From: Bacteroidia bacterium
GTDB lineage: Bacteria; Bacteroidota; Bacteroidia; NS11-12g; UBA955
Length of the DNA: 64,000 bases
Reading direction: 5' to 3'
NCBI GenBank assembly: GCA_023228875.1
Contig: JALOAG010000008.1
Location: 19,163-83,162, forward strand
The notes beneath the pieces are model-generated. The model made no database searches, was not told the DNA's origin, and saw nothing but the letters and a program-made list of their open reading frames with translations. Position 1 is the first letter of the stretch; every line of letters starts with the position of its first letter. A program made the translations under genes and the position numbers. Shown one piece after another: positions 46,853 through 56,472 of the stretch.

Positions 46853-49800
46853 GTTGTGATTTGCTTACAGTTCTTATCTTTGATGTGGTCATAAACAATG
46901 AACAAAGCCCTATACCGGCACGAACACAAGTTGTGATTTGCTTACAGTTCTTATCTTTGATGTGGTCATAAACAATATTTAAAAACAAAAGAAGACAGAG
47001 ACGTAGTTGTGATTTGCTTACAGTTCTTATCTTTGATGTGGTCATAAACAATAATGGGATACATGGAGAAGTACAGACATAATGAAAGAAGCCCTCAAAA
47101 AGAAGGCTCCTTAGTTCCTTACATTGCGAAGTCTATAAGATTAAGCAGTCCAGAACAACTGCAAATATACAACAATAATTTAAACCTAAGAATAAAAACT
47201 AAAAATTAGAAGATATGGCACAAGGCGGATTAGAATATGTAATAGACCTGATAGACGGTTCTTTTGGCAAGAACATTCAGAAGGCGCAGCAGCAGACAAG
47301 TAAGCTGGACGGCTTGGTTAAGCGCGTGGGGGCTGGCGTTGCAGCTGTGTTTACTGTGCAAAAAGTGTGGGGATTGGTGGAAGAGAGCACCAAAGTGCGG
47401 GCAGAGATGGAAGCTCTGGACACCAAGATTAAAATAGTGAGTGGTTCGACAGAACAATACACCCGCTACACTCAAGCGTTGGGTAGCATGATTGACAACC
47501 TTGCACTGCCTATCAAAGAGACAACAGAGTTGTGATTTGCTTACAGTTCTTATCTTTGATGTGGTCATAAACAATTGCCTGCTGAATAGGCTTCTTGGTA
47601 TGCATTGTTGTGATTTGCTTACAGTTCTTATCTTTGATGTGGTCATAAACAATGACAAAAACCGTTACAATCCGAATCAATTTGTTGTGATTTGCTTACA
47701 GTTCTTATCTTTGATGTGGTCATAAACAATTAGACTGTTGGTCTTTTCGTTCAAATACCTGTTGTGATTTGCTTACAGTTCTTATCTTTGATGTGGTCAT
47801 AAACAATTTCTTACAACGTACTTGTATGGTCTTACCCGTTGTGATTTGCTTACAGTTCTTATCTTTGATGTGGTCATAAACAATCCGAATACAACAGGTG
47901 GAAAATAATGGGTAGTTGTGATTTGCTTACAGTTCTTATCTTTGATGTGGTCATAAACAATGACAAGGGCAACGATAGTGAGCAGCCAATAGTTGTGATT
48001 TGCTTACAGTTCTTATCTTTGATGTGGTCATAAACAATCAACTTTTCTTCCTCAACTCGTTTTCTTCTGTTGTGATTTGCTTACAGTTCTTATCTTTGAT
48101 GTGGTCATAAACAATAAAAGTAAATGTCTTTGACTTTGTTGGGTAGTTGTGATTTGCTTACAGTTCTTATCTTTGATGTGGTCATAAACAATGTTGGCGA
48201 AGGGTAGGTCTGTGTCTGTTTCGTTGTGATTTGCTTACAGTTCTTATCTTTGATGTGGTCATAAACAATCTTATTGTTCTCATTATAAGCATTCTCAGGT
48301 TGTGATTTGCTTACAGTTCTTATCTTTGATGTGGTCATAAACAATTAGATAGTTACTTGATTGCATTATTCCAAAGTTGTGATTTGCTTACAGTTCTTAT
48401 CTTTGATGTGGTCATAAACAATTTTAAGGCTCTGGATGTGCCTAATGTGGAGTGTTGTGATTTGCTTACAGTTCTTATCTTTGATGTGGTCATAAACAAT
48501 AAATTGCCCTGCGTTTGCATCAATCTGCTTGTTGTGATTTGCTTACAGTTCTTATCTTTGATGTGGTCATAAACAATTGCTCAACTATTAGGTGGTAATG
48601 TATGCTAGTTGTGATTTGCTTACAGTTCTTATCTTTGATGTGGTCATAAACAATACAGGTTCTAGTTCCTTAAAGGTGTACAAAGTTGTGATTTGCTTAC
48701 AGTTCTTATCTTTGATGTGGTCATAAACAATTTGCTTACTTTGACATGTAGTAATTGTCCAGTTGTGATTTGCTTACAGTTCTTATCTTTGATGTGGTCA
48801 TAAACAATTCTCAATCTTATTCTAAATTTTACTCTTTGGTTGTGATTTGCTTACAGTTCTTATCTTTGATGTGGTCATAAACAATAAGTCATCTATTTAT
48901 ATACACTTGTATAGCGTTGTGATTTGCTTACAGTTCTTATCTTTGATGTGGTCATAAACAATTTTTCAATTACAAATCATTAATAAGTGCATGTTGTGAT
49001 TTGCTTACAGTTCTTATCTTTGATGTGGTCATAAACAATAGGGCATCCAGCTTCAATCATTCGCTTTACGTTGTGATTTGCTTACAGTTCTTATCTTTGA
49101 TGTGGTCATAAACAATGCCGGCAAATGAGTATAACGGCAAAACAGAGTTGTGATTTGCTTACAGTTCTTATCTTTGATGTGGTCATAAACAATTGCCAAC
49201 ATTCCAACGGCTGCCAACCTTTCGTTGTGATTTGCTTACAGTTCTTATCTTTGATGTGGTCATAAACAATTGTAAGAGTGGCAAGCACTACAGTTGAAGC
49301 GTTGTGATTTGCTTACAGTTCTTATCTTTGATGTGGTCATAAACAATAGATAGGTCGTCGCCCCCTTTTCGTTTTTAGTTGTGATTTGCTTACAGTTCTT
49401 ATCTTTGATGTGGTCATAAACAATGTCTCTCTCGTAGTTAAAATCGTCAGGGAGGTTGTGATTTGCTTACAGTTCTTATCTTTGATGTGGTCATAAACAA
49501 TTTAACTCTCTTTTGAAAAACGCAGTAGGGGGTTGTGATTTGCTTACAGTTCTTATCTTTGATGTGGTCATAAACAATGATTTTGCAGTAGAGAATTTAG
49601 AGAAACAAGTTGTGATTTGCTTACAGTTCTTATCTTTGATGTGGTCATAAACAATTATATTTGAGTAGCTTATTGACGGGTTTAGTTGTGATTTGCTTAC
49701 AGTTCTTATCTTTGATGTGGTCATAAACAATTAGCAGACGGAAATGGGAAAATAGTAATGAGTTGTGATTTGCTTACAGTTCTTATCTTTGATGTGGTCA

Positions 49801-49885
49801 TAAACAATCTTCTAAAGAATTTCCTATTTGTTTTATGTGTTGTGATTTGCTTACAGTTCTTATCTTTGATGTGGTCATAAACAAT
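46853..49885 (+). CRISPR. type II-C CRISPR array of 34 identical 47-bp direct repeats (GTTGTGATTTGCTTACAGTTCTTATCTTTGATGTGGTCATAAACAAT). It has 32 spacers of 29-31 bp plus one 476-bp insert in a spacer position. crRNA orientation is '+', as written.
   Basis: I enumerated every repeat by hand; starts are at 46853, 46930, 47006, 47529, 47607, 47684 ... 49839. Every copy looks identical. Orientation follows from the 19-nt complementarity between the repeat 5' end and the tracrRNA anti-repeat on the same strand. Confidence 0.97.
47053..47528 (+). other. 476-bp foreign insert in a spacer position (a 'mega-spacer'). It holds a phage-like intergenic region plus a 5'-truncated tail-tape-measure-like ORF; ATG is at 47215 and the ORF runs into the next repeat.
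   Basis: Intact repeats flank it precisely on both sides. The ORF 47215-47535 (MAQGGLEYVIDLIDGSFGKNIQKAQQ...) has no stop until the TGA inside repeat 4. Its N-terminus resembles tape-measure N-termini (lambda gpH-like MA..G.L.V.DL...F). Confidence 0.75.
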
Positions 49886-49956
49886 ATACCCTACTTGTAT
49901 CTATTGATAGTTCAAGGATGTCGTGGGATATGACACAAAGAAAAAAATGAAATGAC

Positions 49957-49992
49957 CAAGGAGGATTTATTTAGTAAATCCTCCTTTTTTTT
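49957..49992. terminator. bidirectional terminator between the array end and the cas2 3' end
   Basis: aaGGAGGATTTAtttagTAAATCCTCCttttttttt sits 1 nt beyond the cas2 stop on the minus strand and ~70 nt past the last repeat on the plus strand. Confidence 0.7.
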
Positions 49993-50335
49993 AAAACATT
50001 TGTAATTGCTGTACGACTACATGTGGATTTTCTTGTGCTTTTGTGCCATTAAAAATTTCTATATCGCCAAATTGTTTATCGGTGATACAGAGTATGCCGA
50101 TATGTCCAAATTCCGGCAGGCTCTTTTTAACCCTTTTTATGTGTACATCCGCATTCTCTCTGCTCGGGCAGTGTCGAAGATAAATGCTGAACTGAAACAT
50201 GGTATAGCCGTCTTCTAATAACTTTTTGCGAAATTCGGCATATCGCTTTCTGTCTTTTTTTGATTCTGTCGGTAAATCAAAAAACACTAATACCCACATA
50301 ATTCTGTATGCGCTTAATCTTTCTTGTGTAGCCAT
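49991..50335 (-). CDS. cas2: CRISPR-associated endoribonuclease Cas2 (type II)
   Basis: It is 114 aa with a Cas2 N-terminal beta1 ([14 protein letters not shown]). It is adjacent to cas1 with a 15-nt gap. Confidence 0.9.
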
Positions 50336-56342: not shown

Positions 56343-56388
56343 TGTGAAAAATTAATAATTAATGGCATGCAAGTAATAACTTTATTCT

Positions 56389-56396
56389 TATATTTG
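56389..56396 (+). promoter_or_regulatory. Bacteroidota sigma-A -7 box (TAtaTTTG) positioned to start tracrRNA transcription at about 56401
   Basis: TATATTTG matches TAnnTTTG and sits 4-8 nt upstream of the first anti-repeat nucleotide. No convincing -33 TTTG was found. Confidence 0.45.
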
Positions 56397-56400
56397 CAAC

Positions 56401-56472
56401 ACTGTAAGCAAATCACAATAAGGATTATTTCCGTTGTGAAAACATTTAAGGCGGGGTAACTCGCCTTTTTTT
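56401..56472 (+). ncRNA. tracrRNA. The anti-repeat ACUGUAAGCAAAUCACAAU is followed by a stem-loop region and an intrinsic terminator (GGCGGGguaaCUCGCC-U7).
   Basis: Positions 56401-56419 are the reverse complement of repeat nt 1-18(19), with a G-U at the end. The terminator is at 56449-56472. It lies in the 197-nt gap upstream of cas9 and is transcribed divergently. Confidence 0.85.

Follow-up and report, generated by a model that had tools for sequence, protein, structure and literature searches.

The locus described here lies in a 64,000-nucleotide (nt) stretch of DNA from a Bacteroidia bacterium (GenBank assembly GCA_023228875.1, contig JALOAG010000008.1, positions 19,163 to 83,162 of the forward strand), which we refer to as the window and in whose numbering all coordinates are given. 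The window belongs to a 322-kb MEGAHIT metagenome contig (k141_602565, ENA: ERZ27247346; locus tags M0R38_) of a metagenome-assembled genome (MAG). It carries a type II-C CRISPR-Cas system with cas9, cas1 and cas2, an array and a candidate trans-activating CRISPR RNA (tracrRNA). A II-C assignment taken alone is ordinary. What sets this locus apart is a gene for a RAYT-like HUH/Y1 nuclease directly upstream of cas1, and a giant spacer that holds the start of a phage gene whose capture recurs in related arrays.

The three cas genes are encoded on the minus strand, as an earlier reading of this DNA made from the sequence only had proposed, and all have strong matches in Pfam, NCBIfam and PADLOC. 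They are cas2 (49991-50335, 114 aa; Pfam CRISPR_Cas2, 1e-17; TIGR01573; PADLOC Cas2_II), cas1 (50351-51292, 313 aa, type II (NMENI) class; TIGR03639, 307 bits; PADLOC Cas1_II, 378 bits; Pfam) and cas9 (52065-56342, 1425 aa, long Bacteroidota II-C type; TIGR01865, 465 bits; Pfam RuvC_III and HNH_4; PADLOC Cas9). The catalytic motifs D10, E718, H803 and H967/D971 are all found in Cas9, in line with the sequence-only reading's description of a long Bacteroidota-type protein with complete RuvC and HNH motifs. Its nearest solved structure is that of CbCas9 from Chryseobacterium, also II-C (PDB 8iyq), and the nearest set of solved structures consists of II-C Cas9s, CbCas9 together with those of the Nme type; the best match among species-representative genomes, 80% identical, is in Bacteroidetes bacterium OLB9. 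Neither csn2 nor cas4 is present among the called genes of the locus, and Cas9, an NMENI-class Cas1, Cas2 and a tracrRNA in the absence of both genes uphold the type II-C assignment. The implied three-gene operon has to be revised, however, as an open reading frame (ORF) of 240 codons (51296-52018) lies between cas9 and cas1. For comparison we assembled 80 related loci found via Cas9, along with loci reached from homologues of this 240-aa protein, which we call Y1 (labelled L001, L006 and so on). The cas9-cas1-cas2 architecture is present in all of the 80, and all are from Bacteroidota.

The array (46853-49885, plus strand, with CRISPR RNAs (crRNAs) in the plus sense) consists of 34 repeats and 33 spacers. 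The 47-nt repeat, GTTGTGATTTGCTTACAGTTCTTATCTTTGATGTGGTCATAAACAAT, occurs on the plus strand as 34 exact copies and no degenerate ones, which confirms the earlier count of identical repeats and the absence of a degenerate terminal repeat. The same reading described the spacers as uniformly 29-31 bp; this is true of 32 of the 33, whereas spacer 3 (47053-47528) measures 476 nt. That the array lies on the plus strand, convergent with the cas genes, is supported by the coordinates and by the anti-repeat pairing described below, and published work likewise has II-C arrays transcribed antisense to the cas operon, as that reading stated (Hoikkala 2021; PMC8092290). About 15 of the related loci have their degenerate repeats at the cas-distal end, and II-C arrays, including those of Flavobacterium, are reported to be transcribed toward the variable (leader) end from promoters within the repeats (PMC8092290; PMC10309648). 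Based on these two points, we place the leader on the cas2 side and regard 46853 as the old end, so that new spacers would be inserted at the cas2-proximal end, next to 49885. The presumed leader, assigned from the polarity of related loci and the literature, would then span 49886-49957, a segment that is identical or near-identical in other samples. Beyond it, on the plus strand, a terminator (49958-49986) made of a hairpin with a 13-pair stem followed by TTTTTT sits between the convergent array and cas2 transcripts.

Two repeats of the array share their flanks: repeats 4 and 25 are both preceded by AACAGA (6 nt) and followed by TGCC (4 nt), yielding a 57-nt exact duplicate (47523-47579 and 49141-49197) whose chance over all repeat pairs is, by a rough estimate, well under 1%. 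No spacers common to the arrays of related species were found when the fetched loci were compared. The exact repeat had no match in the JGI metagenomes or IMG/VR, and no phage-borne copy of it was found.

A tracrRNA candidate of about 75 nt (56400-56474, plus strand, with an inferred 5' end) is recognizable upstream of cas9 by its anti-repeat, promoter box, terminator and fold. The anti-repeat (56401-56418) is an exact 18-nt complement of repeat nt 2-19 and is found elsewhere in the window only in the repeats; the pattern would be expected 0.02 times in the window and is seen 35 times (the 34 repeats and the tracrRNA). The promoter box TATATTTG (56389-56396, plus strand) is of the Bacteroidetes -7 type (TAnnTTTG, consensus per PMC10309648) and would serve the tracrRNA, which ends in a GC-rich hairpin (56448-56467) and a T-run up to 56474. 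The repeat:anti-repeat duplex has an energy of -28.6 kcal/mol and the 75-nt fold a z-score of -4.1. The divergent tracrRNA of the sequence-only reading is thereby borne out as a prediction: its anti-repeat is unique, and it has both a promoter box and a terminator. Since the 5' part of the repeat, as written, is what pairs with the anti-repeat, the crRNAs would be read from the plus strand, convergent with cas2. Every repeat of the window also contains TTG-N18-TAtcTTTG, in agreement with the Bacteroidetes -33/-7 consensus, and the window's repeat consensus is one of 25, among 55 related ones compared, that carry TAnnTTTG at repeat positions 16-26 (at 23-26 in all save three).

The system would most likely work as follows. 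The tracrRNA would be transcribed divergently from cas9, and crRNAs would start within the array at the predicted promoter in each 47-nt repeat (TTG, 18 nt, TAtcTTTG) and run toward cas2. The first 19-20 nt of the repeat would pair with the tracrRNA, after which Cas9 would cut matching DNA. A search of Rfam gave no matches. We also considered additional anti-repeats proposed by a duplex-energy scan and rejected them, as the scan gave only long, imperfect pairings that probably arise by chance. Three such sites, at 11571-11630 (plus), 1911-1990 (minus) and 30211-30270 (plus), lie inside ordinary coding regions and reach -33 to -35 kcal/mol; they are stronger than the true 19-bp anti-repeat duplex and yet full of bulges, and are probably fortuitous.

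No targets of the array were found. The 32 normal spacers have no match in the rest of the 64-kb window, which answers the earlier concern about self-targeting within that span, and none in INPHARED phages, PLSDB plasmids or any of the fetched loci; an exact search of IMG/VR with two leader-proximal spacers also returned no match. As no spacer matched, the protospacer-adjacent motif (PAM) that the sequence-only reading had hoped to derive from protospacers in phages and plasmids could not be inferred. These null results count against an active system, and the lack of a match in any sequence searched is what might be said for a decaying or silent relic. We consider a relic very unlikely: the four ORFs are intact with their catalytic motifs, the repeats are all identical, the tracrRNA is intact, and the same intact operon is recovered from at least five other samples. 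With the genes and the tracrRNA intact and the repeats identical, current activity is likely.

In those other samples (Logan assemblies, at least five) the same cas operon is accompanied by an identical Y1 gene. In three of the loci from other samples of the same species (L082, L084 and L085), the operon is followed by a single repeat that joins both array flanks. This probably reflects the collapse of the array by short-k-mer Logan assembly, although array-less strains may be an alternative. Genes for an outer membrane protein (OMP), dnaE, a MiaB-like gene and lgt flank the locus. Altogether, we are confident in assigning the locus to the long-repeat group of Bacteroidota type II-C CRISPR-Cas9 systems, as a complete member in a recurrent variant that includes the Y1 gene.

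The Y1 gene (51296-52018, minus strand, 240 aa) follows cas9 at a distance of 46 nt, ends 3 nt ahead of cas1, and encodes the HUH residues H53/H55 and a catalytic tyrosine, Y174, in the motif YIHLNP. Its product matches NCBIfam REP_Tyr_transpos (NF047646) with an E-value of 5e-15 and 55.6 bits, under the equivalog cut-off of 80, and Pfam Y1_Tnp with a score of 19.8, under the gathering threshold of 23. A profile of 40 homologues matched a single PDB entry, TnpA-REP (4er8). The same structure was the top Foldseek match of an AlphaFold2 model with a predicted local distance difference test score of 79.7 (E 1.7e-5, probability 1.0), with IS200/IS605 TnpA structures next in rank. H53 and Y174 are kept across the 40 homologues, as is H55 with one exception, and the alignment shows a variable 40-aa insert. 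By sequence and predicted fold, Y1 is a RAYT-like HUH/Y1 single-strand DNA nuclease with an intact active site.

Its surroundings are not those of a mobile element. No transposon ends were found around Y1, where the gaps are too small to hold them, and the best matches within the window include one copy only. In the window no REP hairpins flank the gene, its flanks being cas9 and cas1 at 46 and 3 nt. The possibility of an IS200/IS605 insertion sequence was dismissed because of these gaps and of the sub-threshold Y1_Tnp score. We also considered that Y1 might act on the CRISPR repeat as on a REP-like hairpin and rejected this idea, as the repeat is unstructured as single-stranded DNA (ssDNA), with a z-score of +1.4. 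No PADLOC model covers the gene. The literature searched, which did not cover Zhang et al. 2024 (Nature 630:484), held no description of a HUH/RAYT gene in II-C loci, and a 2025 classification names the PIN-domain protein PcrIIC1 as the sole II-C accessory.

The association of Y1 with cas1 extends well beyond this window. More than 1600 Bacteroidota proteins belong to the family, and in at least 11 other II-C loci of Bacteroidota Y1 stands directly upstream of cas1. In the slot between cas9 and cas1, Y1 is found in four of the 80 Cas9-found loci (L006, L011, L015 and L016), as well as in L091, L093, L096, L097, L137/138 and L139/140, and a distant version is present in L025. When nine homologues were looked up from the Y1 side, six proved to be embedded in cas loci, in that same position, two of them in the cultured hosts Pedobacter puniceum and Niabella drilacis and the rest in four MAG lineages; the six are spread over several clades of the tree, and their Cas9s measure 1276-1802 aa. 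The three others are standalone genes, among them a separate subgroup of 248-250 aa that adjoins surE. Measured in nine loci, the distance from Y1 to cas1 is 3-7 nt, and that from cas9 to Y1 ranges over 5-1169 nt. Identity among the same nine falls to 31-40% for Cas9 and is 57-66% for Y1. The cas1-cas2 module is known to recombine with different cas9 genes in Flavobacteriales (PMC12669027). The fixed Y1-cas1 gap and the conservation of Y1 beside diverged Cas9s fit the expectation for a gene that belongs to this module, and Y1 probably travels with it. We infer that Y1 acts in spacer acquisition or DNA-end processing, rather than as a transposase.

Several observations weigh against a required role for Y1. 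The proposed link to adaptation is drawn from a conserved position and an intact active site. Y1 is missing from about 90% of related II-C loci, its homologues also occur outside cas loci, and it is a pseudogene in two of the relatives: in L001 (14288-15142), the window's closest relative with a Cas9 80% identical, it carries frameshifts and stops, and in L022 (14326-14940) it has two in-frame stops. The gene is therefore dispensable for the system, and its decay in L001 and L022 indicates that it is being lost in some lineages. Moreover, the slot between cas9 and cas1 is variable among relatives and houses other genes. It is thus quite possible, if short of probable, that the RAYT-like gene plays no CRISPR role and is a passenger, domesticated or selfish, in a permissive slot. 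The standalone homologues, the presence of ParDE in a II-C locus of F. columnare (PMC8092290), and the fact that RAYTs are typically single-copy domesticated genes whose function is not known (PMC5581495) are all compatible with a passenger. A passenger would nevertheless have to account for a gene that always lies directly upstream of cas1 at 3-7 nt, even though the neighboring Cas9s are only 31-40% identical, that keeps its catalytic residues and is more conserved as a protein than Cas1 or Cas9, that is cas-embedded in six of the nine homologues looked up, over several clades, and that has no transposon ends.

The contents of the slot in other loci are diverse. They include PRiA4_ORF3 (L006 and L017), DUF6155 (L018), a nucleotidyltransferase (L021) and RhuM (L069), along with two recurrent ORFs without assignment, of 157 aa (L025/L026) and 156 aa (L006/L046). 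Other Y1_Tnp subtypes are found there as well, namely a RAYT-like 196-aa protein (L042) and a true IS200 TnpA (L070).

The second distinctive feature of the locus is spacer 3 (47053-47528, plus strand). This 476-nt unit is bounded on both sides by full, perfect repeats, and its GC content and homology mark it as phage-derived. Within it lie the 3' terminus of a MuF-like gene, an intergenic stretch and codons 1-105 of a tape-measure-like gene; the GC content is 43% for the unit, 49% for the ORF part and 37% for the window. The truncated ORF (47215-47535, plus strand), identified through a homologue search, runs for 106 aa and takes its stop codon from repeat 4. Its 40 homologues, most of which are full length (520-640 aa), all align to residues 1-105. 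The full-length homologues match PHROG tape-measure families, and the truncated ORF itself has a weak match to Pfam TMP_3. No source phage was found in INPHARED, at the DNA or the protein level. IMG/VR, searched with the spacer 3 fragment, the MuF gene of L090 (see below) and the query P0123, held nothing close, and the JGI metagenomes held no source either. The query P0124 returned only relatives about 35% identical.

The nearest relative of the truncated ORF, 66% identical, is itself a truncated gene in a CRISPR array. It is found in a different genome (GCA_039810705.1, locus L090), in a 1481-nt unit flanked by perfect repeats in a related II-C array, fourth from the distal end. The unit, in region L090:6546-8578, carries a MuF-like gene and the intergenic region, together with codons 1-113 of the same tape-measure-like gene. 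Repeats 3 and 4 of that array carry a C-to-A variant. A third truncated copy (L100:575-1123) ends at about codon 107, in the opposite orientation, 183 nt from the degenerate terminal repeat of a II-C array in yet another organism. The three truncations fall within 8 codons of each other, which is unlikely by chance. Just upstream of the truncated ORF in L100, three tandem units of about 120 nt (L100:280-560) each carry a terminator-like hairpin, GGGAAATTGATTGCTCAATTTCCC.

Spacer 3 is known from one MEGAHIT contig, and assemblies from other samples collapse the array. An assembly artefact joining phage reads to the array would explain why the ORF is found on one contig only, in a k141 metagenome assembly, while contigs of the same species from other samples show a collapsed, single-repeat array. 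We find this improbable. The fragment lies between full 47-nt repeats and ordinary spacers, and a graph with k = 141 needs k-mers that span the repeat and the insert. The same architecture, a homologous fragment between perfect repeats, is present in the separate assembly of another organism, and this parallel in L090 disfavors an artefact; long inserts are also found in other related arrays.

The comparison of the two fragments also bears on how often such DNA was acquired. The coding fragments of the window and L090 are 63% identical at the DNA level and differ at 69 of 105 third positions, with a saturated synonymous divergence (pS) of 0.90 and a nonsynonymous divergence (pN) of 0.22. The fragments therefore diverged under purifying selection, as a working gene does. 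Such divergence speaks for two independent captures from related phages rather than one neutral ancestral insert. One could instead suppose that a single ancient insertion is common to both loci, or that there are two arrays separated by 476 nt of inter-array or leader DNA. The giant unit does lie close to the old, cas-distal end of each array (third in the window and fourth in L090), and L029 and L078 have 0.6-1.7 kb of genes between a perfect solitary repeat and the degenerate terminal one. We give such scenarios little credence, however, as this extent of divergence is that of a working gene and not of neutral array filler, the flanking spacers on the older side bear no relation to each other, the units have different left boundaries (476 versus 1481 nt), and all 34 of the window's repeats are identical.

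Spacer 3, the third-oldest of the array, most likely entered by normal integration or by recombination at spacer positions. In both the window and L090 the near-constant end of the fragment faces the leader, and in type II integration the leader-facing end is the PAM side (PMC8092290). The leader-facing, PAM-side end of spacer 3 may thus have been defined normally while the other end was left untrimmed, and the unit should still give a usable crRNA from its last ~20-30 nt. We hypothesize that PAM-defined capture with failed trimming accounts for the constant leader-facing end; the preserved promoter and start codon would, as a further hypothesis, fit selection for an expressed N-terminal fragment. 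We also considered an integrase-type attP core common to the phage gene and the repeat, and rejected it, as intact homologues encode nothing resembling the repeat at the junction.

Near the distal ends of related arrays, long inserts are not uncommon. In addition to those above, L007:19292-20383 holds a 1092-nt insert with a methyltransferase-like fragment between near-perfect repeats, L029:18801-20537 a 1737-nt insert between a solitary perfect repeat and the degenerate terminal repeat, L078:18503-19131 a 629-nt insert, and L100:1124-2034 a 911-nt insert. The insert of L029 contains two ORFs that resemble an AbiEi/AbiEii toxin-antitoxin pair by sequence. Such inserts occur in loci without Y1; as L007, L029 and L078 have inserts and no Y1, we discarded Y1 as the cause of giant inserts.

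To our knowledge, type II-C is the minimal Cas9 system and has no known spacer-preparation helper. Type II-A has Csn2, and types II-B and II-D have Cas4. An ssDNA nuclease kept directly upstream of cas1 in many Bacteroidota loci is a candidate for the helper that II-C is missing. We tentatively propose, as a possible if rather doubtful account, that Y1 is an undescribed accessory of a Y1-Cas1-Cas2 adaptation module, for instance one that provides ssDNA substrates for capture. Separately, these arrays would take up kilobase-scale phage DNA and repeatedly keep the promoter and first ~105-113 codons of one tape-measure-like gene, through site-specific capture or through selection for a truncated decoy protein expressed in the array. 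Were Y1 such a helper, a transposon enzyme family would have been recruited to Cas9 systems for a second time. That the start of one phage gene was captured repeatedly suggests an unrecognized rule of spacer selection, or arrays that store and perhaps express phage fragments. Should neither feature be upheld, the locus would be one more Bacteroidota II-C system.

Comparison with known systems shows how much of the locus is shared. The Bacteroidota II-C loci of Flavobacterium columnare, F. psychrophilum and Chryseobacterium (CbCas9, 8iyq) have the same order of tracrRNA, cas9, cas1, cas2 and convergent array, with repeat-encoded promoters and transcription toward the variable end as proposed here. 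Bacteroidota II-C repeats are long (46-48 nt) and begin with GTTGTG (Chylinski 2013), features that the window's repeat shares. To this group the window adds the RAYT-like gene between cas9 and cas1 and the 476-nt spacer, with a best Cas9 match among species-representative genomes that is only 80% identical. In the II-C systems of Neisseria meningitidis and Campylobacter jejuni, the repeats are 36 nt, Cas9 is ~1000-1080 aa, the repeat promoter is a sigma-70 extended -10 and there is no HUH gene. In the window, by contrast, the repeat is 47 nt with the Bacteroidetes TTG/TAnnTTTG motif and a HUH gene is present. Shared with these two species are the minimal cas9-cas1-cas2 core, a tracrRNA upstream of cas9, and, as predicted for the window, an array read from repeat promoters, antisense to the cas operon (PMC8092290). 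A II-C array split by a long insert also has a precedent in F. psychrophilum CN46, where an IS256 element interrupts the array and transcription continues on both sides (PMC10309648). Unlike that element, the insert of the window has no transposase and no target-site duplication beyond the repeat, and consists of a truncated phage gene bounded by whole repeats.

Y1 itself can be compared with three kinds of proteins. PcrIIC1, a PIN-domain pro-CRISPR accessory that binds Cas9 and modulates the system, is likewise a non-core gene embedded in a Bacteroidota II-C cas locus, but Y1 is of the HUH/Y1 type in fold and sequence rather than PIN, and adjoins cas1 rather than cas9. With RAYT/TnpA-REP (4er8), its top match by both sequence and structure, Y1 shares the HUH motif, a catalytic tyrosine in a YIxxNP helix and the fold; it differs in scoring 55.6 bits against a cut-off of 80, in having no flanking REP hairpins and in its variable 40-aa insert. 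IscB and TnpB are the ancestors of Cas9 and Cas12. The IS200/IS605 TnpA proteins encoded beside them offer the same pairing as the window, a Y1 HUH enzyme next to an RNA-guided RuvC/HNH nuclease, although Y1 of the window has no transposon ends and stays below the Pfam Y1_Tnp threshold. Because the Cas9 of this locus is a derived, long II-C form, Y1 would represent a later recruitment rather than a relic of that ancestral pairing.

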